The notes under the pieces are model-generated. The model saw nothing but the letters and a program-made list of their open reading frames with translations. It had not been told where the DNA came from and searched no databases. A program made the position numbers and the translations under genes. A stretch of DNA of 64,000 nucleotides from an uncultured Acidobacteriota bacterium. Its GTDB lineage: Bacteria; Acidobacteriota; UBA6911. Shown here in pieces: positions 3,851 through 20,654 of this stretch (position 1 is its first letter; each line of letters opens with the position of its first letter). The stretch is taken from assembly GCA_963843575.1 (NCBI GenBank), contig CAWJKZ010000025.1, forward strand, positions 192,001 through 256,000, read 5' to 3'.

Positions 3851-4059
3851 GGGTCCGTCCAGAATAACAGGTCCACTTTGCTGCAGGCCCCCAGGCCCGC
3901 TGACAAGGCGCGAGCGACGAGCATACCCGGGGTGGTATGTAAGGAGCGAGCAACGCTGTCAGCGGGCCTGCGTCCCCACATCGCCTGCGTCGCGGCGCCT
4001 TGCATCTGCCCTCCCGGCGCTCGCGCCAAGTGGGCCTGTTATTCTGTGACAGACCCTAG
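3847..4059. mobile_element. MITE flanked by CTAG, IS5-family-like
   Basis: Left CTAG-GGGTCCGTCCAGAATAACAGGTCCACTT; right rc CTAG-GGTCTGTCACAGAATAACAGGCCCACTT; no transposase inside. Confidence 0.65.
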
Positions 4060-4175
4060 GGTGATCTCGGTGTCGAAGAGGGCCAAAAGTGCGGCAACCG
4101 CGGCGGCAGGGCTGTGGCCGCGTCTTCCTTGATTGGTCTCTCCTGCGCGCCCCTTCCAGATCGGGTCAATGGGGG

Positions 4176-5108
4176 CTACCCTGCGGTCGTCGCCCATTTC
4201 TCCAGGAGTGCCCGGGTCACGCCGGCGCCGCCGCAGACGATCACCAGGACGGGTCCGACACCGCGCAGCGCGGGAGCTTGCTCGTAGGCTGCGGCAAGCG
4301 AGGCGCCGCAGGCCGGTTCGACCAGGACCCGGTGATCATCGGCAAAGCGCAGGCACGCCTCGACGGCAGACCGGTCGCTCACCACCCAAGGAACGATTTC
4401 CCGCCGGCCGGCCCAGGCAAGCGCCGCAGGCGCAACAGTCCGGGCTCCTAGGGTCGTCGCCAGCGACGTGATGGCCTCCAGCGTGACCAGCCGGCCCGCG
4501 GCGACCGATGCCGCGAATGAGTCGGCCCCGCGGGTTTCCACGGCGAGTATCGGCACATCGCCCCATCCCACGTCGCTCATTCCCTGCGCGACGCCGCAGA
4601 GAAGCCCTCCACCTCCTACCGAAACCACGACCGCGCCGGGCTTGATCCCGCTTTCGGCTGCCTCGTGCAGCATGGTGGCATGCCCGGCCCACGCCCTCGG
4701 ATCGTCGAAGGGATGGATATAAGCCGCCCCGGGCCCATCAGCCAGCCGGACGGCGTACATGTGGGAGTCGTCCCACGCCTCCCCGAACTCGGTCACCTCG
4801 GCACCTTCCCCGAGTATGAGGTCGCGGGAGCGGTTCGAGGTGCGGCTCGGAACGACAATCGTGACCGGCACGCCGAGCCGCCGCCCAGCGTAGGCCACCG
4901 CGTAACCGGCGTTTCCTCCGGAGGAGGAGACGAGACGCCCGGCCCCCTGTTCGACGGCGTCCTGGCAGGCAGCCCCCATACCCCGTAGCTTGAACGACCC
5001 GACGGGTTGAAGCGCTTCCATTTTCAGGAAAACCGGTGCTCGCAGGAGCTGGCCCATCGGGCGCGAGTCCCACAACGGCGTGCGGTGGTGCAAAGCAGTG
5101 AGGGTCAT
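4176..5108 (-). CDS. PLP-dependent L-serine/L-threonine ammonia-lyase (fold type II)
   Basis: LKMEALQPVGSFKLRG PLP-lysine motif, SSGGNAG, IHPFDDP, SVGGGGL, LVEPACGA. Confidence 0.9.
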   Translation of the reverse strand: MTLTALHHRTPLWDSRPMGQLLRAPVFLKMEALQPVGSFKLRGMGAACQDAVEQGAGRLVSSSGGNAGYAVAYAGRRLGVPVTIVVPSRTSNRSRDLILGEGAEVTEFGEAWDDSHMYAVRLADGPGAAYIHPFDDPRAWAGHATMLHEAAESGIKPGAVVVSVGGGGLLCGVAQGMSDVGWGDVPILAVETRGADSFAASVAAGRLVTLEAITSLATTLGARTVAPAALAWAGRREIVPWVVSDRSAVEACLRFADDHRVLVEPACGASLAAAYEQAPALRGVGPVLVIVCGGAGVTRALLEKWATTAG

Positions 5109-5165
5109 GTACTCCCCCGGCAGAAAAGGTCAAGCTTGTGAAACAGGAAACACCCTGTCATCGTA

Positions 5166-5900
5166 TTGGTTTACTTCATGTCCTGCAACGTGCAGGTAGC
5201 AACTATGTATAAGCTGATAAACCTGATCGTCCTCCTCGTCCTCTGCGCCCCGCCGCTTGCCGAAGCGAGCGCCGAAGACCTGAAACACGCGCAGGAAGAA
5301 CTGATTCGGAAGACGGCGGCCTACGGCGACGAACTGGTCAAGCTGCTGTCCATCGAGGAGGCTGCGCGCGAGGCCGTCGAGCGGGGCCTCCCAAAGCGCC
5401 GCGAGCTTTATGCCGGCGGTCTGATATCGAGACAGGAGCTGGAGCAGAGTGAGGCCAGGCTGCACGAAGCCGATGCCCGCTTGCGGGAACTGAGGCGGCA
5501 AATTACTGAATCAGCGGACCTTGTTGCAGAAGTACGGCTGGCTCTCGAGACGCCGTCCACCGAAGGGCAGGATGCCACGGTTATTCGCTTCGAAGGGCAG
5601 GCGCCCTGGAAGCCGGACGCGCTTTCGACGATCGAGAGCTTCTACGTCCGCCGTTTCGGCGAAGACCTGCCGGTCAGCGCCGTCGGCCAGACGGCCCTGC
5701 ACAACAGGTTCGGTCTGCTGCACACCACCGCAGTCGATATCGCGCTGCACCCGGACAGCCCCCAGGGGCTGGCACTGCTGGAGTTCCTGCGAAAATCGGG
5801 GACGCCCTTTATCGCCTTCCGGACGTCGGTCCCTGGATCCGCCACCGGAGCCCACATCCACATTGGACCACCCTCGCAGCGCATCCACATGGCGCTCTGA
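5166..5900 (+). CDS. Secreted hypothetical protein: coiled-coil N-terminal part, C-terminal H..D..HxH domain
   Basis: Signal peptide (probable start near 5205), helical repeat region, LHTTAVDIALHPDS...ATGAHIHIGPPS. Confidence 0.7.
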   Translation: MVYFMSCNVQVATMYKLINLIVLLVLCAPPLAEASAEDLKHAQEELIRKTAAYGDELVKLLSIEEAAREAVERGLPKRRELYAGGLISRQELEQSEARLHEADARLRELRRQITESADLVAEVRLALETPSTEGQDATVIRFEGQAPWKPDALSTIESFYVRRFGEDLPVSAVGQTALHNRFGLLHTTAVDIALHPDSPQGLALLEFLRKSGTPFIAFRTSVPGSATGAHIHIGPPSQRIHMAL

Positions 5901-5980
5901 CAGAAAGTGAGCATCGCCCGGCCAAGGCCCAGGTAGGGCAGGTCAACCGCGAGACGGGCTGCAGCGGGACGCGCTGGGGG

Positions 5981-7033
5981 CTATTTCTTGTCTTTCTTGG
6001 CGGTGTAGCCCTTCTTGGTCCGCGCCACGAGACCCGGCTTCTTCAACTTGACTTCGACTTTGCGGAACTTGCCGTCGTGTTTGGGGTTGCTCGAGTAGTA
6101 GCCGATGCTGTACTGGCTGGCCAGTTCCTTGGCGACCTCCTCGAATGCGTAGTCAAGGTCCTGGTTTCCGTCAAAGACCAGGCCTCCGCTGAACTCCGAC
6201 AATTTCAGCAGATAGCTGTGACCGGCCATGTAATCGCCGGTTCTTCCCCCGGGGTAGCCGCCCGGATAGCCGCCAATCCTCGGCCGTGAACCGATGACCG
6301 GGGGCAGGCCTCCGCCGGGGTACGGGTAACCACCGACGGTGGGGCCGAGGCCGCCGGTACGGTATTGGTCCGCCTCCGTGTTGTAGTAGACACTATAGAC
6401 GGTCGCGTAAGTCTCTTTGGCCAGGTCGAGTGTCTCGCCCATCGACGCCTTGCGGCTGCACGTGTCCACCCCGTCGGTGAAAAGCACCAGCGCCTTGCGC
6501 TGTTGGACCGGCTTGAGCACCTCGTCGAGGGCGAGCCAGACGGCTTCGTACTCGACCGTGCATCCGCCCGAGCGGGTCTTTTTGATCCCGTACTCGTTCT
6601 TGTTCCGGTCCATGGTGAAGTCTTCCTGGAGTTTGGTGTCCTCGGCAAACGACAGCACGGCCACCTCGTCGTCGGGGTGGAGCTTGTTGACAAATTCGAT
6701 GGCCGCGTTCTGGATGTTGGCCAGCTGCAGTTCGGTGCTGCCGCTGGTGTCGAGCGCCAGGGCGACCGAAACCGGCTCGTCGGTAGCCGCGAAGCCGGCG
6801 ATGGTCTGCTCGACGCCGTCTTCGAATACCCGGAAGTCGTCTTTGGCGAGGTCGATGACGCGCTTTCCCGCCTGCGTCGTGACAACCACCGGGAGAGACA
6901 CCATCTCGACGTTGACGCGGATCGCCTGATCGTCGGCAGCCGGTTTTTTCTGGGCCCGGGTCTGCTGAGGCCCCGCGCAGAGCAGCGCGGCGAGAACTGC
7001 ACCTGCACACATCCTGATCGTGTTGTCTGACAT
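5981..7033 (-). CDS. VWA domain protein (VWFA-related acidobacterial type)
   Basis: IRVNVEMVSLPVVVT, DFRVFEDGVEQ, MIDAS DTSGS, FTDGVD, QYSIGYYSSNPKHDGKFRKVEVK. Confidence 0.9.
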   Translation of the reverse strand: MSDNTIRMCAGAVLAALLCAGPQQTRAQKKPAADDQAIRVNVEMVSLPVVVTTQAGKRVIDLAKDDFRVFEDGVEQTIAGFAATDEPVSVALALDTSGSTELQLANIQNAAIEFVNKLHPDDEVAVLSFAEDTKLQEDFTMDRNKNEYGIKKTRSGGCTVEYEAVWLALDEVLKPVQQRKALVLFTDGVDTCSRKASMGETLDLAKETYATVYSVYYNTEADQYRTGGLGPTVGGYPYPGGGLPPVIGSRPRIGGYPGGYPGGRTGDYMAGHSYLLKLSEFSGGLVFDGNQDLDYAFEEVAKELASQYSIGYYSSNPKHDGKFRKVEVKLKKPGLVARTKKGYTAKKDKK

Positions 7034-7149
7034 GGCTGCGCCTCGCCTCCGGTTAATAGATGCGATCCACGCCCGGAACGGGTCACTCGTTTCCTCAGTT
7101 TAACAGAACCACCGAGTGCAACTGTCCGGGATAGGCCAGATAAAAAGAC

Positions 7150-7194
7150 GTCCGGGCTGAAGCCCGGACCCACTTGGCTGAAGCCCGGACCCAC
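7150..7194. repeat. REP family A (GTCCGGGC-TGAA-GCCCGGAC-CCAC), one full copy plus a partial copy
   Basis: Perfect 8-bp stem palindrome followed by CCAC (GTGG on the other strand). Confidence 0.85.
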
Positions 7195-7263
7195 AATCCG
7201 GAGATTTTTTCGCTCAAAAGCAGCGGGCGGGGTTGAACAGGCGACAGGGGGCATCGACGCGCC

Positions 7264-8799
7264 ATGCTCTTCCGGGTTCAATCCGCTGCGGTCTTCGGCA
7301 TCAAAGCCTACCTGGTCGCGGTCGAGGTCGACCTGGCCGCGGGCAAGAAGATGAACTTCATGACCGTTGGCCTGCCCGACACGGCGGTGCGGGAGAGCAG
7401 TGAGCGGGTGAGGGCGGCGCTGCGCAACTGCGGCTATCAGCTGCCGCCGCAGCGTATTACCATCAACCTGGCTCCTGCCGACGTGCGCAAGGAAGGATCG
7501 GCCTTCGACCTACCGATGGCAATCGGCATTCTCGGGGCAGCGGGCTCGGTACGTACGCAGAACCTGTCCGGCTATCTCTTCCTGGGAGAGCTGTCGCTCG
7601 ACGGCTCGATCCGGCCGGTGAAGGGAACCCTTTCGATGGCCGTCATGGCCCGGGAGAAGGGGCTCGGGCGGCTCGTGCTTCCCGAGGCCAACGCCGGCGA
7701 GGGCGCCGTGGTTGACGGCGTCCACGCCTTTCCCGTACGCACTCTCCCCCAGGTGGTCGAGCTGCTCAACGGACGCGCCCCCTGGATTCCGCTGGTCGTG
7801 GATCGGCGGCAACTGCTGGAGCAGAACGGGGTCTACGAGGTGGACTTCCGGGACGTGCGGGGACAGTACCAGGCCAAGCGCGCGCTCGAGGTCGCAACGG
7901 CCGGCGGGCACAACATCATCCTCATCGGGCCGCCCGGCTCCGGCAAAACGATGCTCGCGCGGCGGCTGCCGACCATTTTGCCCGCCATGACCTTCGAGGA
8001 GGCGATCGAGACGACCAAGATCCACTCGGTCGCGGGCCTGCTTTCGGAAAAGAACGGTCTGGTCGCGATTCGCCCGTTTCGCGCGCCGCACCACACGATC
8101 TCCGACGGCGGGCTGATCGGCGGCGGCAGCACGCCGAGGCCGGGCGAGGTCAGCCTGGCGCACAACGGGGTGCTGTTTCTCGACGAATTCCCCGAGTTCC
8201 AGCGACACGTGCTCGACGTCTTGCGCCAGCCGCTCGAGGACGGCGACGTGACGATCAGCCGGGCGTCGATGTCGCTGACCTTTCCGGCGCGCTTCATGCT
8301 GGCCGCCGCAATGAACCCCTGCCAGTGCGGCTGGTCGGGCGATCCCGAAACACGAATGCACCTGCACGGTGCCGCTCATCCAGCGCTACCTCGCCCGCAT
8401 CTCCGGGCCGCTGCTCGACCGCATCGACCTGCACATCCGGGTGCCGGCCGTGAAATACAAGGAGCTCGCGCAGGACGAGACAGCCGAAGCCTCGGCGGCG
8501 ATCCGCGAGCGCATCGTCGCGGCCGGCAGATCCAGTTCCGCCGCCTGGAGGCCTTCGGTTTGTTCTGCAACGCACAGATGACGCCGCGCACGCTGCGCCG
8601 CTTCTGCAAGCTCGACTCGGAGTCCGAGAAGCAGATGGAAAACGCCATCACGCGGCTCGGGCTGTCGGCGCGCGCCTACGACCGGATCCTCCGCGTCTCG
8701 CGGACGATCGCCGACCTGGCCGGCGAGGAGAAGATCCAGGCGCGGCACGTCTCCGAAGCCATCCAGTACCGCACCCTCGACCGCACCTACTGGCAGTGA
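7264..8799 (+). CDS. comM: YifB/ComM family Mg-chelatase-like AAA+ ATPase (compensating frameshifts at ~8350-8530)
   Basis: VGLPDTAVRES, INLAPAD.RKEGSAFDLP, GPPGSGKT, RPFRAPHHTIS, PGEVSLAHNGVLFLDE; the RYLARISGPLLDRIDL segment is in another frame (8369-8581). Confidence 0.93.
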   Translation: MLFRVQSAAVFGIKAYLVAVEVDLAAGKKMNFMTVGLPDTAVRESSERVRAALRNCGYQLPPQRITINLAPADVRKEGSAFDLPMAIGILGAAGSVRTQNLSGYLFLGELSLDGSIRPVKGTLSMAVMAREKGLGRLVLPEANAGEGAVVDGVHAFPVRTLPQVVELLNGRAPWIPLVVDRRQLLEQNGVYEVDFRDVRGQYQAKRALEVATAGGHNIILIGPPGSGKTMLARRLPTILPAMTFEEAIETTKIHSVAGLLSEKNGLVAIRPFRAPHHTISDGGLIGGGSTPRPGEVSLAHNGVLFLDEFPEFQRHVLDVLRQPLEDGDVTISRASMSLTFPARFMLAAAMNPCQCGWSGDPETRMHLHGAAHPALPRPHLRAAARPHRPAHPGAGREIQGARAGRDSRSLGGDPRAHRRGRQIQFRRLEAFGLFCNAQMTPRTLRRFCKLDSESEKQMENAITRLGLSARAYDRILRVSRTIADLAGEEKIQARHVSEAIQYRTLDRTYWQ

Positions 8800-8841
8800 G
8801 GAACCGAATCGACTCCGGGTTCAGTCGTCGTGAGGGGAGTC

Positions 8842-8970
8842 GTGGCGAGGACGATTCTTCTTGTCGAAGATCACGAAGGGGTGGCCAGGGTCACAAGAAA
8901 TGATCTGATTCTGACGGATATCGGGCGAGGGGTCCGATGGACGGCATCGAAGCCGCGCACCTGCTGGCAG
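8842..8970 (+). pseudogene. Degenerate response-regulator receiver-domain remnant
   Basis: GTG start after GAGGGG; reads ARTILLVEDHEGVAR..DLILTDIG, then PMDGIEAAHLL in a shifted frame; internally deleted. Confidence 0.5.
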
Positions 8971-9246
8971 TGACGCCGCAGAGAGAACGGCGTCGCATCA
9001 CGGGTTTCCGCGGATTCTCACGAATCGGGTCCATGCCCGACTGGGCGGCTGGTGTCGCCTGCACGGAGGAGTGCACCGCTCTGCCGATCCGTGCCGGTCC
9101 TTCCTGGTTTTTCCCTTGACTCGCCGTGTATTTGGATATAGGTAAGAGACAAGAGAAATGAATGTCGACTACTACCGCGACTAGCACCAACGGCTAAAAT
9201 GCTCTGAGCACGGCAACTCGACGTTGTTTTTTCCTGGTGCGCGCAG

Positions 9247-9705
9247 ATGGAGACGCAGTGCGTGACAGTTTTCGATCGCATCCAGCGATTGCGCCCGGGA
9301 GACATCCCATCCCTTCTGCGAATCACGACCATTCTGTTGGCGCTGCCCTTCCTCTTGCGACGACTGCCGTTGAACAGGCTTTTGCACCTTCTTGATGCTA
9401 AACCGCTCCAAGCAGCCGATTCTCACTTATCTGTCGAACGGCACATCTCCCTGGCTCGCGGGCTACTCCACTTAAACATCGGACCGTTTCGACCCAACTG
9501 CCTGACGCAATCGCTTATATTGTTCCACCTCCTGCGTCGGTTGGGTCTTCCTGTACGCATTCATTTCGGGTTGGCAAGGCGGCAAACCAGACTCCAGGGA
9601 CACTGCTGGTTGGAATCCGATGGAAAACTCATCGCCGAAAAGGCGGATCCGGCGCGCTTCTACCGGAGTGTATACACGTTTCCGGATCGTTCTCTGGTGC
9701 AATAG
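9247..9705 (+). CDS. Lasso-peptide-type B2 leader peptidase (transglutaminase-like cysteine protease)
   Basis: PNCLTQSL (catalytic Cys), LRRLGLPVRIHFG, GHCWLESDG (His/Glu region) as in Transglut_core3/B2 proteins. Confidence 0.88.
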   Translation: METQCVTVFDRIQRLRPGDIPSLLRITTILLALPFLLRRLPLNRLLHLLDAKPLQAADSHLSVERHISLARGLLHLNIGPFRPNCLTQSLILFHLLRRLGLPVRIHFGLARRQTRLQGHCWLESDGKLIAEKADPARFYRSVYTFPDRSLVQ

Positions 9706-9734
9706 ATCCGGTGCAATAGAAAGGAACACCCGTG

Positions 9735-9908
9735 ATGGCCGAATCAAACACCCCACATGACAGCGACCTTGCCCGCAATCTCGCAAGAGAGCGACAGGAT
9801 GCAGCTCCACGGAAATCGGACAGGAAGTCGTTTGTGAAACCTGAATTGACGAAACACGAATCTCTCCCTGAGGTGACCACGGCATTCTTCGCGACCTTCC
9901 AACCTTGA
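9735..9908 (+). CDS. Putative RiPP precursor peptide, 57 aa (not in ORF track)
   Basis: AAGGAA RBS at 9721-9726; MAESNTPHDSDLARNLARERQDAAPRKSDRKSFVKPELTKHESLPEVTT|AFFATFQP*; F/P/L/T at -17/-14/-12/-2; stop overlaps the next start. Confidence 0.85.
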   Translation: MAESNTPHDSDLARNLARERQDAAPRKSDRKSFVKPELTKHESLPEVTTAFFATFQP

Positions 9909-10957
9909 GAGACTGCAAGGTGCCCGGAACGTCGATTCCGAACCGGCGAGTTGTGTCCCGTATTCCGCTCCCTTTGCCTTCGCACTCCGCGGGAAAGGAC
10001 TACCTGCTTCACGGCCTCTTGGTGCGTGTCGATTGCGACAACAAGCGCCTTGAACTGCAGGTCCATTCTACCCTCGAGCAGTTTGGGCTGGTGCCGTCCG
10101 ACCAATATGGAATGGTGCCTGACGTGTCCCTGACGCTCCGCACTGCGGCTGGCCGATTATGCGTTCCTGGCAAGAGTCGCCTTTTGGCCGAGCAGCATGG
10201 CATACGAATTTCGAGTGCCCGGAACGATGTCTATCTCGAGGATGGCGACAATGTCGCTCGCCTGAGTCCGCATTCGGCAAGCGGTATCGCCACGATTCGT
10301 GCGGGAGCGCCGAGAACGCGGGCGCTGCGGGGAGACCTGCTTCTCCACTGCCTCCTTCTTTTGCTGAGGTATCGGGATCTCTTTACGGTGCACGCTGCAT
10401 GTGTGGCCCGAGACGGAGCGGGATGCATGTTGGTGGCCGAGGGAGGTTGCGGCAAATCCACCCTCATGTTCGCCCTTGTCCGGCACGGCTGGAACTACCT
10501 CTCCGATGACGTCAACCTCCTTTGTCCGCGGGGTTGCGACGTGCAGGCTCTGCCGCTCAGGAGAGATCTGTCGCTGCACATCACGGCTGCTCGCAGATAC
10601 CCCGAAATAAACGATTGTCGCGACTCCATTTCCATGACTCCGGATTCGAAGCTTCGTCTGAATCTGCTAACGCTCTATCCCAACCAACTCGCTGCCGCTT
10701 GTCTTCCGCAACTACTGCTTTTCCCTCGGATCCTACGCGGGCCGACCAGTCGACTTGAACCGATGCCCAAGCCTGAGGCCTTGTGGCATCTGATCAAGCA
10801 GAGCGCTTTGCTTTTTGTGGAACCCACTATGGCGCCCAGACATGTCGATCTTCTCAGGCGGCTGGTAGGCCAATGCAAAAACTATTCCCTCGCAGCGGGG
10901 ACGGATCTCGAGAAAGACCCAGGCGCGATCTCCGGTTTGGTGGACGGCATCACCTAG
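9905..10957 (+). CDS. HPr kinase-related P-loop kinase (RiPP tailoring type)
   Basis: VHAACVARDGAGCMLVAEGGCGKSTL...GWNYLSDD: catalytic His, Walker A and DD motifs of the HprK C-terminal family. Confidence 0.85.
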   Translation: MRDCKVPGTSIPNRRVVSRIPLPLPSHSAGKDYLLHGLLVRVDCDNKRLELQVHSTLEQFGLVPSDQYGMVPDVSLTLRTAAGRLCVPGKSRLLAEQHGIRISSARNDVYLEDGDNVARLSPHSASGIATIRAGAPRTRALRGDLLLHCLLLLLRYRDLFTVHAACVARDGAGCMLVAEGGCGKSTLMFALVRHGWNYLSDDVNLLCPRGCDVQALPLRRDLSLHITAARRYPEINDCRDSISMTPDSKLRLNLLTLYPNQLAAACLPQLLLFPRILRGPTSRLEPMPKPEALWHLIKQSALLFVEPTMAPRHVDLLRRLVGQCKNYSLAAGTDLEKDPGAISGLVDGIT

Positions 10958-10971
10958 AGAATTCTCGAAGC

Positions 10972-11982
10972 ATGACAGCAAAGCCGGGTATGAGATTAAA
11001 CTTCGAGCTAACCAATCTCTGCAATCTGCGGTGCATACATTGTCTTAGAGAAAGAGGGGCCCCTGGCGAGTACCTCTCTGTCTGCCTGGTCGAAAAGGTC
11101 CTTGCCGAGATGCAGTCGTACAGCAGTTTCGAGTTGGTCAGCTTTGGAGGAGGCGAGCCGACCCTGCATCCCGGGCTCGATACGATCATAGGACTCGTGA
11201 CCCGCCATGGGTATCGGTTCGCTTTTGTGACCAACGGCTGGCAATTTCAAGAGACATTCCGGATTCTGAGACCCTATCTCGGATTCCTGGAGGGAATCTC
11301 GTTCAGCCTCGACGGCGCCAACGAGGCCAGTCACGATGCCCTGCGGCTTCGGCCCGGCTCCTTTCGCCAGGTGATTCAGGCCATTGTTTTGTCTCGTTCA
11401 CAAAAAATCGCCTCTCACATAAACATGGTCGTCACCAAAGCAAATCGCACAGAGCTGGAAGACATGGCCTCACTGGCAAGCCATCTGGGTTGTTGCATCC
11501 TGGATTTCGCGCACTGCCAGCCGACGCCGGATGCCGTCGCCGCCGGGTTGGTCCTGAACTCCGAAGAGCGTCAGCAGGTGGAAGCAGATATTGCCGAGTT
11601 GCAGCGGATCTACAGGATGAAAATCCGCCTTGCGGGAGATCATCATAGCCCTTTGCGGTTCTATCAATGCCCGCAGTTGCGCATGGAGGAACTCAATGTC
11701 GACTACCGCGGCCGGCTGACCTTGTGCTGCATGCTCTCCAACTACCGGGGAGGCACTCCCGATACGGACGTGATCGCCGATCTGAACGAGGTGTCCCTCG
11801 CAAAAGCACACCTGCGCCTCATTTCCACGATTGCGGAGCTCCAACGCGAAAAGGTCACACTTCTGAACCGAAAGCCGGCAACGAAAGAGGATTCCTTCAT
11901 TTGCACGCACTGCCTCATTCACTTCAAAAAGGTGCCCGATATCCGGCGGATCCTGGAGCCGTCCCGAGGTGTGGGCACTTAG
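10972..11982 (+). CDS. Radical SAM enzyme with C-terminal Twitch/SPASM-like cysteines
   Basis: ELTNLCNLRCIHC (CxxxCxxC), GGGEPTLHP, VTNG, SLDG..HD; C-terminal QCP..NVDYRGRLTLCC..CTHC. Confidence 0.92.
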   Translation: MTAKPGMRLNFELTNLCNLRCIHCLRERGAPGEYLSVCLVEKVLAEMQSYSSFELVSFGGGEPTLHPGLDTIIGLVTRHGYRFAFVTNGWQFQETFRILRPYLGFLEGISFSLDGANEASHDALRLRPGSFRQVIQAIVLSRSQKIASHINMVVTKANRTELEDMASLASHLGCCILDFAHCQPTPDAVAAGLVLNSEERQQVEADIAELQRIYRMKIRLAGDHHSPLRFYQCPQLRMEELNVDYRGRLTLCCMLSNYRGGTPDTDVIADLNEVSLAKAHLRLISTIAELQREKVTLLNRKPATKEDSFICTHCLIHFKKVPDIRRILEPSRGVGT

Positions 11983-11996
11983 TCTCTGGAGGTCTT

Positions 11997-12284
11997 ATGT
12001 CGGCTTCCGAGCAGCAATTCCGCTGCCATCCAAGCGTCGTCTTCACCCGTCTGAGCGAAAACGAGGCGGTCCTGCTGCATCTGGACACGAAAAGGTACTA
12101 CTCCCTTAATGAAACCGGGGCGCGCCTTTGGGAACTCCTCCAGGATGGAAGGGTCCCGGATACTCTCTGCGAAAAAATCCTCGAGGAATATGACATCGAC
12201 GACAACAAGGCCCGCGGCTTCATCCGGGAGTTTCTGGATGAGTTGCGCAGGGAAGGCCTTGTGGAATCCGGTGGTGGCCACTGA
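11997..12284 (+). CDS. PqqD-family RiPP recognition element (RRE, B1-like)
   Basis: GGAGG RBS; EAVLLHLDTKRYYSLNETGARLWELLQ...EEYDID...FLDELRREGLV. Confidence 0.92.
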   Translation: MSASEQQFRCHPSVVFTRLSENEAVLLHLDTKRYYSLNETGARLWELLQDGRVPDTLCEKILEEYDIDDNKARGFIREFLDELRREGLVESGGGH

Positions 12285-12290
12285 GGAATT

Positions 12291-13670
12291 ATGGTTCCTG
12301 CCAGGAGCAGTCTGCCCGTGAATAAGAAAACGGCCGATTCGAATTCGGCTTCGGGAGTTCCGTCTCCAGATGCATCGCTGCCTCGACTGAAAACCGGGCG
12401 ACTCTGCCCCGCCGATCAAATGCATGTGATTGAGATGCCTGCCGATTTCTTACGCAGCCCGGTGCTCCCGGAAACAAAACTGCTGCTAGAATGTGCCTCC
12501 CTCGAAATAGCGGACGAAAGGGCACGGCGAATACGGAGCATCGTCGGCGGGAACCTGGATTGGACGGCTCTTATCGAGCGAGCACTCCGGCATGGCGTCA
12601 TGCCGCTCCTGTATCGCAACCTTCTGCTCGTTTGTCCGGATGCTGTTCCCGCGTCACACCTCGAACATCTTCGGGATGTGTTTTCACGTCAATTCGCGGC
12701 GCTGCCTGCTTTTCGCGGGGCGGCTGGTCGAGATCCTGCGACTGTTGGAGGCCAACAATATAACTGCAATACCGTACAAGGGCCCCGTGCTGGCCGCATC
12801 AGTGTATGACAACCTTGTACTTCGGCAGGCCGGCGACCTGGATATCCTGGTGCATTCTCGCGATGTGTCCAAAGCCAAAGCGTTGATCTCGTCCCTGGGA
12901 TTTTTCGGATCGGGACCGAATGACCTCGGACGTTGAGGCGATTCGTGCCCGATCGGACTATGAGTTCCGGCTGGTCAGCAAAGCGGACGACCTTTACGTC
13001 GGTCTTCACTGGAACGTCTGGCCGGCGTCTCAGCATTTCCCACTGGAGAGCCTGCACTTGTGGGAACGTGTTGTGCCTTTTCGGTTCGCGGGAGCGTTGG
13101 TCCCATGCCTCAGACGAGAGGACCTGCTCATTCTACTCTGTGCGCACGGAGTGAAGGACGTCTGGCCGAGGCTCATCTCCGTCTGCGATATTGCGGAGTT
13201 GATCCGGACATCCGAGCACCTGGACTGGAATTGCACTCTCCACCAAGCGGAGAGGCTTGGGCTCAGGCGGGTTCTTCTGCTTGGGCTGCATCTCGCTCAC
13301 GCGCTCCTGCAAACGTCTCTGCCCCAATCGATCTCTAGCGGGATCGAAAAGGACGATGCGCTTGCATCACTGGTCGAAGAAGGCACATCAGCGCCTGCTT
13401 TCAGGACCGCGAGCCCCGGAGCCCCTCGAAGGTTCCCTCTACTATCTGAGGTCACGTGAGCGGTTGCGAGACAGACTCAGGGGCTGTGCCGGTATAGTAC
13501 ACCAGTACAATTGGATGACTCCCCGGATTGTGGATCGGACGGTCCTGCCGCTGCCCGCCTCACTTGAGTTCATCTACACCCTGCTCTGGCCCATGCGCCT
13601 GGCAGGGAGATATATCCTCCGTCCAGTGAGACGTGCAATCAGGACTCTCAGGCAAGGCATCGGGTGGTAG
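12291..13670 (+). CDS. Nucleotidyltransferase family protein (NTP_transf_5), frameshifted in this assembly
   Basis: Consecutive frames give LDWTALIERALRHGVMPLLY / IPYKGPVLAASVYDNLVLRQAGDLDILVH / VGLHW..EDLLILLCAHG..W.RL..VCDIAELI / RERLRDRLR..LYTLLWPMRL. Confidence 0.82.
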
Positions 13671-13751
13671 GGGCACACGCACAGTGATGTGGGTTTCCAC
13701 TGCCTGTAACTGCTGCAATGCCCGTTTTCTTGGGCCAGGGACAAGAGTTGG

Positions 13752-16239
13752 TCAGTTACCTCCTGCACTTACGGTCCCCCAGATATCCACAGAGAAGCTG
13801 AACCGGTTCCGGTTAGCCAGGCCGATCCTGAATCGGACGGTGGCTGATTCATTCGGCAGAAGCGTGTCGTCAGTTCCGGCATCAATCGCCTGCTTGCTAC
13901 CCACCGCTCCGTTGCCTTCGTGAGCGCTGAGAAGTTTGTTCCCGTTGGTCAGCGTCGCCACAACCGCCTTGATCGGTTCCCAGATATTCTGCTGGCTCTT
14001 GTTGGTTAAACGGGCAGTGATCGTATAGACACCAGCAGGACCGCCGTAAACAGGAGTGGTACTCAAGGAGGAGCTTTGGACCACGAAGTTCACCTTGTCA
14101 TTGATGAGCTGCAGTTGCGGCAAACCGGACAGATTCGTGTCTAGTTTGACAATAAAGCCCTCATTCTGTTCCCTGGTGCTATCTGCCGACCCTGCCCCTG
14201 CCAATCTGGGAATGTCAGGGCCTGTAAAACCTGCCAAATAGAGGTCCCCAACACTATCAAGAGCCACAGCACTGACGTATATACCTTGTCCCAGCAGCAA
14301 TGCTGATGCGAGGTTAACGCTAAGATCTGAATTCAGCTTCGCCACACAGACTCCGTCATTTGTGGTACCACCCACGTAAACACCCGTGCTTCCAATGGCA
14401 AGAGACTCATCAGTACAGCCACGAGTCCCCCCCGAAAAACTGGCAGCCACAATTGAACTCAGATCTGAACTCAACTTTGCCACAAAGCCTCCGAAGTCTG
14501 CAGCAACAGTGCTCTCGGCGGAGCCGGGACCTACGCCTGGAAAATCCGATGATCCCGTGCGACCGGATACATAGACAATTCCTGCGTCATCTAGGGCGAG
14601 GGCATATATCTGATCGATGTTGCCACTTCCACCAAGAAACGTAGCTGCCAGAATGGAACTCAGAACCGAATTCAGCTTCACCACAAACCCTTCGGAACCA
14701 GATGCGGTGCTATCGGCGGACCCTGAACTTATACCTGGAAAGTCGCCTGAGACTGTGGTACCAGCCGCATAGACTGATCCACTGCCATCTAAGGCGAGGG
14801 CTGTAACGGTCTCGAAATACCGTCCTCCTAGGAAAGTTGCCGCCACAATGGAACTCAAATCCGAATTCAGCTTGGCCACGAAGCTCTCCCCTCCACTATC
14901 ATAAGGTTCGGGGACTCAAAAGTGCGATCGGCCGAGCCTAGACCTATTCCAGGAAAATCGGCTGATCCTGTAGAACCGCCCACATAGACATTCCCTGTAC
15001 TGTCAAGGGCGAGGGCCTCAGGCGCATCTACACCACTTCCTCCAAGGAAGGTAGCTGCCAGGATTGAGCTCAGCTCTGAGTTCAGCTTTGCAACAAAACC
15101 TTCTGATCTATACGTTTTGGGTAGCCGGTATGTTTAGCAAGTATGCGATCGGCTGAACTTGGACCAATGCCTGGAAAATCCGCTGAGGAAGTAGTACCGA
15201 CTGCGTAGACATTCCCAGCACCATCAAGCGCGAGGGCATTCAATGATTCATAATTGCTTCCCCCAATGTAGGTAGCAGCCAAAATGGTGCTTAGATCTGA
15301 ATTCAGCTTCGCGACAAAACCATCTCCTCCAGCAAGTGTGAGATCTGCCGACTCCGAATCTATACCGGGAAAATTGGGGGAGCCTGTGTCACCTGCCACA
15401 TAGACATTCCCCATGTTGTCCAAGACAAGGGCATGAAGTTCATCATTATTAATTCCCCCCAGGTAGGTCGCCGCTAGTATCGGGTCGATGACAAGCTCCC
15501 GGGTCTGGTCGTACTCCCCGACCTTAAAGCTGTATCCATTGCCTCGTAGCTGATAGGCAACTTCGACTGGCTCTCTCTTTCCTCCCTGCTCCTGAGACGC
15601 TAACGGCTTTGAGAACCTCACCGTCCCTTGGTCTGTCTCTACCTCCAGTTCTCCGCTCTCGTTGACCTTAATTCCCTTCCCCCCGCTGAGCTTCATCTGG
15701 ATCGTCTCTGGCTCGGCCCCCGGCTTTACATAAAACAGCTTCTCCACATTGTTCCCATAGGCTTTGAATTTGACGTCGATCCCTTGATAGACTTCTCCCA
15801 GACTCACCCGGTCGTAGCTGGGCAGGTTGCTCTGCCATTTCGATCGGTCATTCCCCCTGAAATAGCTCACCCGGGTCGCTGTCCGGCTTTCGCCTTTAAC
15901 CTCCCTCACCTTCGCGCCGATGAGCTCCTCTCTCAGCACCACCCCCTTCGCTGGTTTCTCTCCCTCCAGCTTTGGAAGGGAGTACACCAGTTCGCCTTTC
16001 TTTGTAACCGAGACTGTTCCGGCAAACGTCCGGGCGGTGAACTTCACCTCTTTACTGCTCTGGCCCCGATTGGGGATAAAGGGAATCTGGACCTTGGCCA
16101 GCTTCTGTTTCGCCTCAGCTCCCACGGCATTCGAAGAGCTATTCGAGCTAGCCTCTGCCAGTTGCGCTATCCCCAGCGCCAGCGACAACCAGACCATGAT
16201 CTGCACCGAAAAAGTGGTGTGACAATTCCAGGTTTTCAT
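13752..16239 (-). CDS. Secreted SBBP-repeat (beta-propeller) surface protein, frameshifted near 14880-15110
   Basis: Signal peptide; FIPNRGQ..VSYFRGND.SKW..LGEVYQGID..LVIDP N-terminal domain; many ATYLGG..D....LALD..GNVYVAG.T.S..FPG..GFVAKLNSDLS repeats. Confidence 0.85.
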
Positions 16240-16880
16240 ACGTCCTCCCGACGATGAGAGATATCCGTGAACCCGGTTGCGAACACGGCTCGAACCGGCG
16301 TGTTCAGAAATAAGCGTTTGTCTTTGCCTCGTTCTGCTTCGGGGGCAGGAGGAGATGTTGAATCGGGAGCCTTCTTTGGCTTCGTGTCCTTGTCGGATCC
16401 TTCGGAGTTCCCGGTAGGATCGAAAATGAACTCGAACGGATCTGGACTCGGAGCCGGCGGCGACGGGTGTCTATTGTCAGACTTCTCCCTCTTGGGAGAC
16501 ACGACGACCCGGGTGATGGTCGAGAGGGATGCGTTGGAATGGTAGAAAATGGCTACGTTTGCCAGCCTTGCCATCGCTTCGGCAAGGGGTACGTGGTTAA
16601 ACTGAATCGTTATCCTGTCATCGAAGGCTTCGGGGATTTCCATTAGGATCCCGGTCTGCTTGCCGATTTCACAAAAAATATGTGCAATCCGCGCATCTTT
16701 GACTTCGATAGAAACTTCCTGATCTTGGACTTCAACTCGAAAGGTGGCGGCGTCGGGGTGAGCGCATTTTTGTATATCGACAAGGGAACGTGCTGTATTG
16801 GGTGCGATGAAAAGCGAGCAGAGGAAAACGAATGTGGCGGGTATCTGCCACACATGATTGGATATCTTCACCATGACCAC
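16236..16880 (-). CDS. Secreted hypothetical protein with a secretin N-terminal (STN/N0)-like segment and Pro-rich tail
   Basis: VSIEVKDARIAHIFCEIGKQTGILMEIPEAFDDRITIQFNHVPLAEAMARL; stop overlaps the SBBP start. Confidence 0.6.
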   Translation of the reverse strand: MVMVKISNHVWQIPATFVFLCSLFIAPNTARSLVDIQKCAHPDAATFRVEVQDQEVSIEVKDARIAHIFCEIGKQTGILMEIPEAFDDRITIQFNHVPLAEAMARLANVAIFYHSNASLSTITRVVVSPKREKSDNRHPSPPAPSPDPFEFIFDPTGNSEGSDKDTKPKKAPDSTSPPAPEAERGKDKRLFLNTPVRAVFATGFTDISHRREDV

Positions 16881-17328
16881 AATCTCCTTCGCTTCCGGCC
16901 ACGGGCGTGAGACAGTGCTGGGGAAGGTCTACTGTGGAATATCCAGGGGTGGTTTATCGTTCAGATAAATGCGGGTTCAGGATCTGCATGTTTGGAGGCA
17001 GGAAAGAGCCTGGAAACACCGGTCGGGAATCGAGGGAGTAAGCGAAAAACAAGATCAAACCAGCCCGGAAGCCCACATCAAACTCCTTTTAGCTGATGCC
17101 AAGCTGCTTGAACGTGTTTGAAAATCCGGAGCCAATACGTTTGCCATTAAGCACACGCGGCGCACTGATGTCAACTGTCAATATTCTCGGCCAGGATTTA
17201 CGCCGGGGAGATGCATCGCCGATACACCGACTCGATGAATTGAATCACGAATTGAGACACCGGCCAGTGTCTCACCCGAGCGGCTCTCCGCCAACGGCGA
17301 GTCATACAGTGAAAGCCGGTGACATACG

Positions 17329-17559
17329 TTGTTCGATATCCTACTCCTGATCCTCGCCGGCCGGATCAATCGCAGACATCAGGACGCAATCGAATACTTC
17401 CGAACGGTGAATGAGGTACTCGGAGAGAAGCTCGTGAAGAAACGAATCCTGCTTAACGACCACGATCGGCGGCGCATTGCCGTCAAGGGCAAGATCCAAG
17501 GGCTGAAGAGGGCCGAGAGGCTGGCGCCTGTGCCGGCACAATTCTTGCGCGAGCCCTAA
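17329..17559 (+). pseudogene. N-terminal remnant of an integrase-core-domain transposase
   Basis: LLILAGRINRRHQDAIEYFRTVNEVLGEKLVKKRILLNDHDRRRIAVKGK resembles the N-terminus of such proteins; truncated. Confidence 0.6.
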
Positions 17560-17623
17560 GCAGCCTAAAGGAAAGGACCTGTGCGGTCGTTTTGGCTTTT
17601 GAAGCGGATGGCCAGAATTTGCG

Positions 17624-17836
17624 TCAGGCGGCCGGCTCGTAATGCAGGAGCAGTAATTGCTCTTCCCGCAAGGCCAGGATGGCAAAAGAGCGGCCGTCGT
17701 TGTCGGTGAACTCGATTTCGAACACACCGGGAGCCAGGAGCTCCACGACCGTTCCCACCTGCCCGCGGCGGAGCTTGCGGTCCGGCAGATCTTCGGTCAA
17801 AGCCACAACGTCGAGAAGGTTGATTCCGTTGCTCAT
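17624..17836 (-). CDS. DUF4926 family protein
   Basis: LLDVVALTEDLPDRKLRRGQVGTVVELLAPGVFEIEFTDNDGRSFA...LLLLHY. Confidence 0.85.
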   Translation of the reverse strand: MSNGINLLDVVALTEDLPDRKLRRGQVGTVVELLAPGVFEIEFTDNDGRSFAILALREEQLLLLHYEPAA

Positions 17837-17904
17837 TCTCTTGCCTCTATAGCACGTAGCAGCTTGTCAAGCGCGGAAAATCTTCGCCCCGACGAATGAT
17901 CCCC

Positions 17905-18925
17905 GGTACAATCCGCGAAGTGAATCGACAATCGTCTCGATTGACGAAGGCACATGGCGTTCAGGCCGCACTGGCAGCACCCCGCGGCTTGAAACCACGG
18001 GGTACAGGCAGCGGCGCTGGAGGAAGGATAGAGGCTCAGGGGGGGAAAGCCGAGCTCGCTCGGCAGCAGCGAAAGCATATGCTGCTATGCATAATGATGC
18101 CGTGATGGTGAAACCCTCTCCAGCCTCGACCTTCGTAATGATCCAATCCAAACGATCGCTTCAGCTCCTCGTAATCGCGCTCGATCCGCCACGGAGCTTG
18201 GCGAATCGAATCAGCTGATCAACAGGCGTATCGGGCGGCATGGTCGACAGCCAGAACTTCGTAGGTTCCGCTTCGCCGCGCGGCCACTCGGCAATCAAGC
18301 CACTCGACCTCCGCGAGGCTCGTGCAGATCGTTGATCCCGATGGGCAGGGCGAACTCGCAAGCACGCAAATCGAGACGTCATCGAGCCGCGTGTTCCTTC
18401 TCGCCAAGAAACGTCCTGCCACAATTCCTCAGGAGCGTATTTGGCCAGCTCCATGATCGGCGCGGGCTGATGCTTGCCGTGCTGCGTCGGACTTTGCGAT
18501 GGCGGACGTCCTTGTTTAGATCTCGCTTTCGGCGGCAACGGTTCCATACCCGGCGGCCAAACCGTTGTTTCGCTTGCTAACGCCGACGACGTAGGGAATC
18601 TCGCGCAGAGTAAGACGCATCGCGAAACTCAGTTACAACGCCGTATCCCGCATCAGCCAGAATCGGCGGCTGTGGCACTCCTTCGGCAAGCAAGCCATCA
18701 ATCATGTCCAGCGCAATTTGCCATTTGGTCTGGAATGTAACATCAACAGGCACGCCTGCCATCAGCGCGTCGCTCCTCGTCGTTGGCCCAGCTTTCGGGA
18801 AGATAAAGCGATATGCTGCTGGGACGCTCACGGCTTCGTTAGCCAACGTAACGCTGACGGCGATTTGGCAGTTGTCCTGTTTGCCCAATACGCCGCAGTA
18901 TTGACGCGTAACTCCTACAGAATGC
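17905..18925 (-). mobile_element. IS701-family transposase, internal fragment with frameshifts
   Basis: SVGVTRQYCGVLGKQDNCQIAVS, LADAGYG, VSWREGTRG..SRFA.LRVRPA, AEWP.GE.EPTKFWLS, IERDYEELK..GLDHYEGRGWRGFHHH. Confidence 0.88.
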
Positions 18926-19102
18926 GTCTTCCCGCAAGGCCAGGATGGCAAAAGAGCGGCCGTGGTTGTCGGTGAACTCGATTTCGAACACACCGGGAGC
19001 CAGGAGCTCCACGACCGTTCCCACCTGCCCGCGGCGGAGCTTGCGGTCCGGCAGATCTTCGGTCAAAGCCACAACGTCGAGAAGGTTGATTCCGTTGCTC
19101 AT
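18926..19102 (-). pseudogene. Second, 3'-truncated DUF4926 copy
   Basis: Nearly identical to 17662-17836, then runs into IS701 sequence. Confidence 0.8.
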
Positions 19103-19106
19103 TCTC

Positions 19107-19430
19107 TTAGCAGCTTGTCAACCGCGGAAAATCTTCGCCCCGACGAATGATCCAGCTGCTTCGAACCGTGCGCTCGCCGGCCGGGCCGTTCATCGTAAAG
19201 TCTACCACATACCGGGCACCGTACTCATCCTGCTCGCCCGGCTGCGCATCCTCATTCCGCAGCGCTGCAAACAACGCGTCGCGAAGGTCCCCGGCATTGT
19301 TGGCCGTCAGTCCCGGCAATGCCGCAAACAGGCGCGCCTTGTGACAGCCGCGCCGGTGAACGGGGTTCAGGCAGTAGTTCCGCAGCTTGTCCAAGTCGAC
19401 AACCGCGCCTTCAGCATTCGGTAACTTCAC
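19107..19430 (-). CDS. DUF6883 family protein (C-terminus clipped by a short deletion)
   Basis: MKLPNAEGAVVDLDKLRNYCLNPVHRRGCHKARLF...DEYGARYVVDF...VRSSWII...PRLTSC. Confidence 0.8.
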   Translation of the reverse strand: MKLPNAEGAVVDLDKLRNYCLNPVHRRGCHKARLFAALPGLTANNAGDLRDALFAALRNEDAQPGEQDEYGARYVVDFTMNGPAGERTVRSSWIIRRGEDFPRLTSC

Positions 19431-19823
19431 AGAGGTTACTCGCTCCGCATTGCGTTCTCTTTAGCTGCCATTGTAGCAGCTATACAGGGCGTCATAGATG
19501 ATTGCGCATCATCCTGAGTGCACCTGAGGGCACAGTGGATATGCCGGAGCGCGGCGAGATTCTTGGAGACCTTCAAGTCATGGAGGTTGGTTTTTAACCT
19601 CTGAGGCTTCTCGAAGGGCTCGAAGATTCTCAAAAGCGGGCACCCCGGCATGAACTGATGTCACTCCGTATAAAGGGAAAAGACCAGGCTCTTGTTTTGC
19701 TCCGGCCGGACGTGACGCTCTTCCGGCGCTCTCGCACACCCCTGCGTCTCACGTTATCATCCCCTGGGACCCCGGTACAATCCGCCGGGCTACCGGGGAA
19801 CGGAACGTGAGCCGCGACGACAC

Positions 19824-20654
19824 TTGGAGGCAGCCATGACCCTTGCAGGAATCGACTTCGACGGGGAACTCGAGCGCGGGCTCGAGAGCTACGACGACGT
19901 GCTGGGCGGGTGGTGGCTGCGGCAGTCGGAGAACGGGGCACACCGGCGCGCGTACCGCACGATTGCCAGGTACATCCACGATTCGTTCCGGAGGCCGCTT
20001 GGGCTGGTGATCGACTACGGCTGCGGCACCGGCGCGCTCCTGTCCAGGCTCGCCTGGCGCTATCCCGGTGCCCGCTTCCTCGGTCTCGATGGTTCCGCCT
20101 TCATGCTCGAGCTGGCCCGTCGCAGGGTCGCACGCCTTGGACGCGCGTGTACGACGCGCATCCGGCTGCTGCGCTCTCCCCTGCCCAATTTCGCGCTGCC
20201 CAGGGGAGCGGCGGACCTGGTCGTCTATGCATTTCCGAATATCGTCCCCCGCGTCCCGGGCGACGACTTTCACTCGGATGCGCACCGCCTCACCGAGGGG
20301 GAACGTCAGGCCCTGCGCCGCCTGGCCCTTGCCGAAGGGGGCCACGCGGACGTGCTGCGCGACCGCCTGGTCGCCCTCAACCTCCACGGGCTGCTCAAGC
20401 GCGGCGGTTACTGCGTGCGCGTGGAGTACTGCGCCGTGCGTCGGTACGAACTCAGTCACTCGGAACTGCTCCGGACCGGGCTAGAGGAAGGGTCGCTCGA
20501 CTCGGTCCTCGGCGCCCGAAGGCCCAGACAGTGGTTTCGGGTAGTCGCCTCCTCCTGGTTTCGTTCAGGTGTCATAGAGGACGTCCGCCACCAAGCGGGC
20601 ATCCGGCGGGCCGGCCCCGGCGGCTACGCCATCACAGTCCTGCGCGCCCTGTAA
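19824..20654 (+). CDS. Class I SAM-dependent methyltransferase
   Basis: VIDYGCGTG motif I, GLDGS motif; GGAGG upstream of ATG at ~19836. Confidence 0.8.
   Translation: MEAAMTLAGIDFDGELERGLESYDDVLGGWWLRQSENGAHRRAYRTIARYIHDSFRRPLGLVIDYGCGTGALLSRLAWRYPGARFLGLDGSAFMLELARRRVARLGRACTTRIRLLRSPLPNFALPRGAADLVVYAFPNIVPRVPGDDFHSDAHRLTEGERQALRRLALAEGGHADVLRDRLVALNLHGLLKRGGYCVRVEYCAVRRYELSHSELLRTGLEEGSLDSVLGARRPRQWFRVVASSWFRSGVIEDVRHQAGIRRAGPGGYAITVLRAL

Follow-up and report, generated by a model that had tools for sequence, protein, structure and literature searches.

The present analysis concerns a six-gene operon located at positions 9247-13670 of a stretch of DNA from an uncultured Acidobacteriota bacterium (UBA6911), namely positions 192,001-256,000 of the contig CAWJKZ010000025.1 in the assembly GCA_963843575.1; the whole stretch of 64,000 nt is designated here as the window. 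The operon combines a leader peptidase, a precursor peptide, a kinase, a radical S-adenosylmethionine (rSAM) enzyme, a recognition element (RRE) for ribosomally synthesised peptides that are modified post-translationally (RiPPs), and a nucleotidyltransferase (NTase); the rSAM enzyme stands where a lasso operon would have its ring-closing enzyme, and the likely product is a tiny peptide rich in phenylalanine, of an uncharacterised type. All six genes had been listed in an earlier note on this DNA and all of them are found at the positions given there, oriented in one direction, as follows:

9247-9705, + strand: B2-type cysteine leader peptidase, 152 aa (NF033537 lasso_biosyn_B2, 63.7 bits with a cut-off of 33; PF13471, 57.9 bits)
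9735-9908, + strand: precursor peptide, 57 aa (ATG at 9735, with an AAAGGAA box 8 nt 5' of it)
9905-10957, + strand: HprK-like kinase, at most 350 aa, start codon uncertain (PF07475, 19.3 bits; TIGR04352, 61.9 with a cut-off of 200; both below cut-off)
10972-11982, + strand: radical SAM enzyme, 336 aa from the likely start at 10972, in the open reading frame (ORF) 10783-11982 (PF04055, 70.2 bits)
11997-12284, + strand: stand-alone PqqD-type RRE, 95 aa, 11997 being the likely start (PF05402, 70.5 bits)
12291-13670, + strand: NTP_transf_5 nucleotidyltransferase, read in 3-4 frames (pieces of PF14907)

The genes are tightly packed, the successive spacings being 26-29 nt, a 4-nt overlap, 14, 14 and 6 nt, and a gene for a ComM-like Mg-chelatase (comM) is the upstream neighbour. 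Scanning the locus for promoters and terminators gave counts not above those of shuffled sequence, and no Rfam match was obtained between 8 and 15 kb.

The leaders of lasso peptides take, in their longer form, the pattern YxxPxLx3Gx5Tx. In the window, the end of the leader is FVKPELTKHESLPEVTT and the whole 57-aa peptide ends with FVKPELTKHESLPEVTTAFFATFQP; its residues F33-V-K-P36-E-L38 and T48, with Phe replacing Tyr/Trp, fit the RRE-binding motif described for lasso leaders, [Y/W]xxPx[L/V/I/F/A] (PMC13381572), and the Thr in the penultimate position of the leader, i.e. the Thr(-2) rule (PMC10368454). If the cut follows Thr-x, the predicted core could be AFFATFQP, or FFATFQP by the register with the relatives; the cleavage after Thr49 suggested in the earlier note thus agrees with the lasso rule, the alignment leaving an uncertainty of one residue. 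In the alignment of 22 sequences of the precursor type present in the window, designated type B, there is no variation at A5, P36, L38, T48, F51 and F55, and hardly any at G42, F52, G53 and P57. The consensus of this type consists of F-[VI]-E-P-K-L-T-K-H-G-x5-T-x and then, 0-4 residues further on, [GAQ]-F-F-G-x-F-[ST]-P, so that AFFATFQP stands in the window for the family core motif FFGxF[S/T]P.

A profile of 17 precursors retrieved 279 representative relatives (50% clustering, E<=0.001) from 1.84 billion proteins. Among the best 150 of the 279, about 129 belong to type A (...FVEPEISxPVDVLEATT, then FFQ...SGxTN), 19 small peptides belong to type B and one sequence represents a third type (...LEAF[ST]ASF.AP). 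The best 150 also include one protein of 382 aa (P0240), in which five lasso-leader-like stretches (Y.APxL.DHG.....T) are each followed by a longer segment; it might be either a multi-core precursor or unrelated. The 45 distinct cores are 7-17 aa long and, with a single exception, contain F[FL][GAS]xF (44/45); Ser or Thr is present in 45/45, Asp or Glu at core positions 7-9 in 2/45. The cores differ among the subfamilies, the variants being FFG, FFQ and Met-rich.

Concerning the rSAM enzyme, 4,822 candidates yielded 1,487 relatives with E<=0.001; over 100 of these are 43-63% identical, and the source names include Nitrospira, Longimicrobium and Calditrichia. Loci of the cassette occur in Planctomycetota, Myxococcota and Acidobacteriota, as well as on 80 metagenome contigs, the reference loci originating from Ca. 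Brocadia pituitae (complete genome), Byssovorax, Polyangiaceae and Pyrinomonadaceae. A match to the rSAM enzyme was seen in 1 of 60 genomes of relatives (E<=1e-20); within the same phylum, 400 genomes were sampled and 10 had one (E<=1e-40). The single-protein metagenome scan with this enzyme yielded no relative, and two same-phylum matches with 36-37% identity (L095, L096) are without recognisable partners. At 21 distinct other rSAM loci, compared with the window proteins by tblastn, the kinase was present in 17, PqqD in 17, the NTase in 12 and B2 in 8; in 16/21 there was a small ORF encoding a lasso-type leader, and in 8/21 all six parts were present, many of these loci ending at contig borders. 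The 80 metagenome loci were obtained by a scan with the type-B precursor alignment, and 77 of them hold the cassette peptide. Where there is enough DNA downstream of the peptide, it is followed by the kinase in 48/48 (loci with at least 900 nt downstream of the precursor), by the rSAM enzyme in 30/32, by PqqD in 26/28 and by the NTase in 16/18. The gene order of the window, B2-precursor-kinase-rSAM-PqqD-NTase, is seen in 13/80 metagenome loci, and that of Brocadia, with B2 after PqqD, in 5. The small ORF, lack of conservation of which would have spoken against the proposal of the earlier note, is therefore well kept in both sets of loci.

Individual loci exhibit further arrangements. Two metagenome variants look disrupted: at L137 (6001-10102) the kinase has no rSAM gene behind it; at L174 (3553-8151) the kinase and the rSAM gene are 1.8 kb apart and the latter's C-terminal part is inverted. 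Two type-A loci, L101 (7135-11580) and L103 (7479-10718), contain two or three copies of the precursor interleaved with the enzymes, and at L007 a weakly matching sulfotransferase-like ORF (25.2 bits, below cut-off) is positioned between the rSAM and PqqD genes.

A lasso cyclase was found neither with the operon nor in its genome or the cassette loci searched. In its own genome (88% complete) the sole match to PF00733, with 27 bits, is QueC, and the complete genome of Ca. Brocadia pituitae, which carries the cassette, has no PF00733 match above 25.9 bits. With eight probes of the Asn-synthase family, tblastn gave no match in the window or in the 655,640 nt of 103 cassette loci; 26 of the 28 probe pairs find each other, the membership of the probes among lasso cyclases not being known, so that very divergent cyclases could escape them. 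Asn-synthase genes present in other cassette-bearing genomes lie 1.16 Mb (G380), 1.47 Mb (G212) and more than 0.55 Mb (G124) from the cassette, or on other contigs (G096, G008). The nearest one, in G158 (locus L106, C178:12000-31000), is found at a distance of some 8 kb. It carries GATase domains and lies within a run of glycosyltransferase genes, and a histidine kinase gene and two genes with a transglutaminase-like core separate it from the cassette. The statement of the earlier note that the operon has neither a cyclase nor an exporter thus holds, and so does its wider view of a distinct cyclase-less rSAM RiPP system, the cyclase being absent from the locus, the genome and the homologous loci alike and syntenic clusters with similar precursors being found in both sets of loci.

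The core of a lasso peptide is long enough to thread and has Asp or Glu at position 7-9. The predicted window core, AFFATFQP, being too short with its 8 residues and devoid of Asp and Glu, cannot form a lasso. It could be argued that the locus is a decayed lasso locus that has lost its cyclase, since its B2 is a genuine B2 domain of the lasso kind, its leader obeys the lasso rules and the G158 locus has an Asn-synthase gene some 8 kb away. The cyclase-less set is, however, kept over several phyla and in 80 metagenome loci, no Asn-synthase-like gene accompanies it in the 103 loci or in the complete genome, the cores of 7-17 aa are without an acidic acceptor, and the G158 gene, with its glutamine-amidotransferase domains, belongs to a glycosyltransferase operon three genes apart from the cassette. 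This explanation, which we regard as extremely improbable, was therefore rejected.

In B2, Cys85 is invariant in 8/8 homologues and His119 of the GH[AC]W motif is retained; the kinase exhibits the Walker A box GGCGKST. The cysteines of the CX3CX2C motif of the rSAM enzyme are at least 90% conserved among 26 sequences; the residues C233, G247, C252, C253, C311 and C314 (C233-x13-G247-x4-C252 and C311-x2-C314) are invariant in the same set. These five invariant C-terminal cysteines, which we take to be the first half of the SPASM pattern plus a CxxC, would be enough for one auxiliary cluster; the SPASM domain itself (PF13186) was not detected at E<=0.1. The AlphaFold2 model of the enzyme (pLDDT 91.9) has its nearest folds in SkfB, SuiB, viperin-like enzymes and anSME (TMq 0.56-0.67, the best being SkfB, SuiB and anSME with 0.61-0.67), and the sequence matches to solved enzymes cover the N-terminal core only. 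The rSAM epimerase YydG is among the sequence matches (E 1.4e-10); partial matches from NCBIfam comprise MftC, PqqE, AlbA and ScmE/F (43-72 bits, all far below their cut-offs), and the Protein Atlas gives only unnamed rSAM clusters.

The PqqD protein exceeds the cut-off of PF05402 but scores below those of the lasso-specific models NF033530 (53.4, cut-off 70) and NF033536 (49.7, cut-off 80). Among the relatives of the rSAM enzyme there are fusions with PqqD (P0086, P0092). The predicted complex of PqqD with the precursor scored 0.55, the best of 3 controls reaching 0.01, with at least 84% contact agreement between the runs and a partner pLDDT of at least 53. This result was graded as weak support, the mark being reached by 58/80 solved complexes and 2/110 mismatches; among those reaching it, only 7 of the 80 solved complexes, and both of the mismatches, had scores <=0.60. 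Moreover, structures of RRE-leader complexes are reported in the paper on linear polyphosphorylated peptides (LPPs; PMC13381572), and the pass may therefore reflect memory, so that it indicates a likeness at most. With the lasso-type leader (P36, L38, T48), a B2 above the NF033537 cut-off and an RRE that appears lasso-like, the suggestion of the earlier note that a lasso-like leader, RRE and B2 module has been reused here is supported.

Based on the observed gene content and order, the absence of the cyclase and the conservation of the precursor, it is probable that the window contains a working-type copy of a widespread and uncharacterised cyclase-less rSAM RiPP cassette, for which a pathway may be proposed, its binding events, chemistry and order of reactions being our own reconstruction. 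The 57-aa precursor would be recognised through its lasso-type leader (FxxPxL ... T at -2) by the stand-alone PqqD, which would bind it and offer the short C-terminal core to the rSAM enzyme. The latter would take a hydrogen atom from the core and thereby make the change that defines the class. As the best guess, this would be an intramolecular carbon-carbon cross-link at the two invariant Phe residues (i, i+4), to which this pair points; the main alternative is epimerisation, kept alive by the Met/Gly-rich cores of Myxococcota and by the match to YydG. The HprK-like kinase would phosphorylate a Ser or Thr of the core, only Thr54 being available in the window, and the NTP_transf_5 enzyme would decorate the core phosphate; the NTase of pseudomycoidin is said to have a glycosylating role. 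Finally, the B2 cysteine peptidase, aided by PqqD, would cut after Thr-x, with no lasso ring being formed. The roles of PqqD, the kinase, the NTase and B2 are assigned here because of their characterised relatives.

Among the described systems, those nearest to the cassette are the LPPs of Bacillota (Popov et al., Nat Commun 2026, PMC13381572) and the lasso clusters of the paeninodin type. The paeninodin-type clusters, as described in PMC13381572 and PMC10368454, share with the cassette the [Y/W]xxPx[L/V/I/F/A]-type leader, the Thr at -2, the discrete RRE (B1), B2, the HprK-like kinase and the NTP transferase. The cassette differs from them by the absence of both the macrolactam cyclase and the exporter, by its core of 7-8 residues without Asp/Glu, and by the presence of a constant rSAM enzyme and exported beta-propeller companions. 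The LPPs, according to the account of Popov et al. (PMC13381572), are cyclase-less relatives of phosphorylated lasso peptides that likewise have an RRE as a separate protein, a kinase of the HprK-like type and an NTP transferase. They are, however, described there as using an SpI-type signal peptidase and an MsbA-like pump, neither of which is among the Pfam assignments of the cassette ORFs between 9.2 and 16.9 kb, where B2 is found instead. Their precursors are given as 35-200 aa long with a characterised core of 45 aa, and as coming from Bacillota only (PMC13381572), in contrast to the cassette cores of 7-17 aa. Between the LPP leader YxxPxVLxHQxIxFETxxS (PMC13381572) and that of the window, only xxPx[LV] and the His located five residues after Pro agree.

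This relationship raises the question whether the cassette rather encodes an LPP-like pathway, in which (poly)phosphorylation of a linear peptide and its decoration by the NTase would be the defining steps, the rSAM enzyme being an accessory that, for example, epimerises a hydrophobic residue. The kinase, the RRE and the NTP transferase form the core common to LPP and paeninodin-type clusters as presented by Popov et al. (PMC13381572), Ser or Thr occurs in every distinct core, the precursor has its most constant neighbour in the kinase (48/48), the sequence matches include an rSAM epimerase, and the variation of the core among subfamilies (FFG, FFQ, Met-rich) would suit a sequence-tolerant enzyme. 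The rSAM enzyme is, on the other hand, as constant as PqqD (30/32 versus 26/28) and fused to it in some relatives, which suggests a leader-dependent primary enzyme; a kinase site does not explain two invariant Phe residues, and the terms 'radical SAM' and 'rSAM' appear nowhere in the main text of the LPP paper (PMC13381572). An LPP-like pathway thus appears unlikely, and the pathway with the rSAM enzyme as the putative main maturase is preferred.

It should be pointed out that several observations weigh against this preferred pathway or against its operation in the window. The window peptide is atypical: Glu replaces the near-invariant Gly42, Gly53 is changed to Ala, and Gln occupies the position in front of the final Pro where Ser/Thr is usual; the upstream EPKL repeat is also absent from it, and one relative (P0206) has part of the same atypical pattern. 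Thr54 is the sole Ser/Thr acceptor in the window core, whereas the characterised LPP kinase phosphorylates core Ser: LppK is reported to add several phosphates to Ser3 and not to accept Thr, LppN being inactive (PMC13381572). The Met/Gly-rich cores in two Myxococcota loci are without Phe, and a Phe-specific cross-link therefore cannot hold for the whole rSAM family. No ABC exporter was seen in the scan of the ORFs from 9.2 to 16.9 kb. Concerning the conservation, the rSAM enzyme was undetected after the kinase in 2/32 loci, and the locus counts cover rSAM relatives other than the nearest ones, those with 55-61% identity. A three-residue cyclophane cross-link uses Cbeta; as a candidate at the FFG site, this type (Omega-x-X) was set aside on account of Gly, which has no Cbeta. 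Last, the 2-3 frame breaks within the 1.4-kb NTase gene have no counterpart in the other five genes (3.0 kb), and with the breaks so unevenly spread a real decay of the NTase has still to be reckoned with.

As far as the other known systems are concerned, the rSAM enzyme shares with SkfB, SuiB, PqqE (with its PqqD) and MftC the common rSAM core, a Cys-rich C-terminal domain, the PqqD-type partner and similarity of fold. It differs from the SPASM/twitch maturases by the partial SPASM Cys pattern (C-x13-G-x4-C, an extra Cys and CxxC), with PF13186 undetected, and its substrate cores are without Cys, Trp, Lys and Tyr. The comparison with SynChlorMet made in the earlier note does not amount to membership, all the models for ScmC/D/E/F remaining far under their cut-offs: TIGR04249 (23.8/125), TIGR04248 (19.1/100), TIGR04250 (57.1/400) and TIGR04251 (67.5/400). 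The same applies to the HPr-rel-A system, with both TIGR04352 (61.9/200) and TIGR04353 (PqqD_rel_X; 27.2/35) below the cut-off. RRE-Finder reported about 300 discrete 'lasso' RREs located beside rSAM enzymes, classing these as false-positive hits for the lasso model (PMC7470986); the cassette is probably among them. The passages on these rSAM-linked RREs describe no precursor, gene set or class (PMC7470986), and full-text searches of the literature revealed no description of the gene set of the cassette, which may nevertheless be listed in supplementary files; PMC10288494 contains nothing relevant to it.

The operon is accompanied by the following further features:

13752-16239, - strand: DUF7948 and SBBP beta-propeller protein, predicted to be exported (PF25778, PF06739)
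16236-16880, - strand: 214-aa protein with a hydrophobic N-terminus (no Pfam match at E<=0.1)
8800-19847, without strand: variable segment of about 11 kb that includes the cassette (absent from the same-genus genome G001)
17341-18993, - strand: DDE_5 transposase fragments (PF13546, 106.7 bits on 18577-18993)

The DUF7948-SBBP protein is read from two ORFs with a 200-nt gap between them, which its repeat units span; the two ORFs probably represent a single gene, interrupted by frame errors, that accompanies the cassette as a conserved neighbour. A homologue 57-59% identical to it is encoded in one frame between the rSAM and PqqD genes at L112 (4554-6782), and in a genome of the same family (G008) the DUF7948-SBBP gene is positioned just upstream of the cassette. 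The type-B loci have two extra genes on the same strand before B2, one for a large beta-propeller (Sortilin-Vps10-like or SBBP) and the other for a protein of 173-197 aa; an exported beta-propeller and companion region of this kind is seen, for example, at L130 (825-5380). Of the complete loci whose upstream DNA extends over at least 1.5 kb, 8/8 have the propeller and 6/8 the small companion. In the window, both companions are found downstream and on the opposite strand. Relatives of the 214-aa protein were identified by tblastn in 22 cassette loci besides the window, in many of them directly upstream of B2. For this small companion (173-214 aa) Pfam offers nothing usable at E<=1, and the Protein Atlas assigns the 214-aa protein to unnamed clusters, with a sub-threshold STN/FecR_C lead of 0.84. 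The N-termini of both window companions look, by eye, like signal peptides. Of the two flanks named in the earlier note, comM upstream stands, but the downstream SBBP gene is not a boundary and probably forms part of the cassette system.

The cassette lies in the variable segment. In G001, the VWA gene (84%) and comM (89% identical) are followed by about 160 nt and then by the homologue of window positions 19848-20652, and no cassette protein was found in that genome. The GC content is 0.51-0.61 within the segment and 0.65-0.68 in comM. The end of the segment is formed by the DDE_5 transposase fragments, a direct repeat (D3) of 182 nt with 99% identity (17661-17842 and 18927-19108) and a DUF6883 gene; no tRNA gene was found near the segment.

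The NTase gene belongs to the family named in the earlier note (PF14907), yet it does not form one open frame in the present assembly. The PF14907 positions 3-44, 48-118 and 125-248 are matched in the frames of 12291, 12592 and 12920, respectively, the pieces being collinear with the intact homologue at L007 and the frame switches falling near 12683-12686 and between 12918 and 12941; a fourth piece, 13257-13670, weakly resembles the C-terminus of the L007 protein (E 0.006). This could mean that the type of cassette is real and this copy of it dead, with an NTase pseudogene on a recently acquired island bearing insertion sequences. The restriction of the breaks to the NTase among the six genes would fit such a reading, as would the absence of the segment from the same-genus genome, the transposase fragments at its end and the departure of the precursor at three near-invariant positions. 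The same assembly (27 contigs), however, has the essential rpoB in seven pieces (G000 C24:252860-257103; TIGR02013, start frames 2, 0, 2, 0, 2, 0, 1), one of them with a TGA. In comM (window 8300-8580) two shifts compensate each other, the Mg_chelatase positions 1-172 being read in the main frame and positions 178-206 in a different one, and the SBBP gene too is split (gap 14879-15082), its repeat units continuing over the gap and its L112 homologue forming one frame; such indels are thus a property of the assembly. Since these genes are broken as well and the NTase break sites coincide with short runs of T or C or adjoin them, the frame breaks of the NTase are probably assembly indels. The genes for B2, the kinase, the rSAM enzyme and PqqD are each in a single frame and collinear with their homologues, and the C-terminus of the precursor aligns with the relatives. 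Only two soil sequencing runs share 5-6% of words, and their contigs cover 10091-10344, 10461-10719 and a 34-nt piece, with the NTase outside the coverage, so that they bear neither on the breaks nor on the habitat. On balance, a dead copy seems quite improbable and the working-type cassette remains the preferred reading; given the frame-shifting indels throughout the assembly, genes of this genome should be called pseudogenes only with caution.

Taking the companions into account, a more far-reaching proposal can be ventured, to which we give limited credence: the cassette may define a new RiPP class, in which an rSAM enzyme with one auxiliary cluster cross-links the invariant Phe pair of a 7-11-residue FFGxF(S/T)P peptide, a phosphate-linked decoration is added, and the product, rather than leaving through an ABC exporter, is passed on to the exported beta-propeller or sensed by it, so that the peptide would act as a signalling or envelope-associated molecule and not as a classical bacteriocin. 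If the proposed pathway is true, the leader-recognition and cleavage module of lasso peptides would be a portable front end that can be coupled to an rSAM enzyme, and the products, with 7-11 residues, would belong to the shortest natural products of ribosomal origin. In genome mining, the cassette would then account for a part of the 'false-positive' lasso RREs of RRE-Finder. The family is large, with 279 representative precursors and 1,487 rSAM relatives, and comes from hard-to-culture soil and water bacteria of several phyla; it would offer a new rSAM reaction on Phe-rich peptides, a test of one RRE serving a peptidase, a kinase and an rSAM enzyme, and an unexplained link to exported beta-propeller proteins.

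It is worth mentioning that the same genome encodes a second HprK-like kinase together with an intact NTP_transf_5 protein at another locus (L084, G000:C20:34500-54499, positions 3893-15026). This is a polysaccharide locus containing PMT_2, Wzy_C, GT4 and GDP-mannose dehydratase genes, and a B12-binding rSAM gene adjoins the kinase and NTase pair; tblastn with the window proteins gave no match there to PqqD, B2 or the cassette-type rSAM enzyme. The polysaccharide setting recalls the capsule-locus setting described for the LPPs (PMC13381572).

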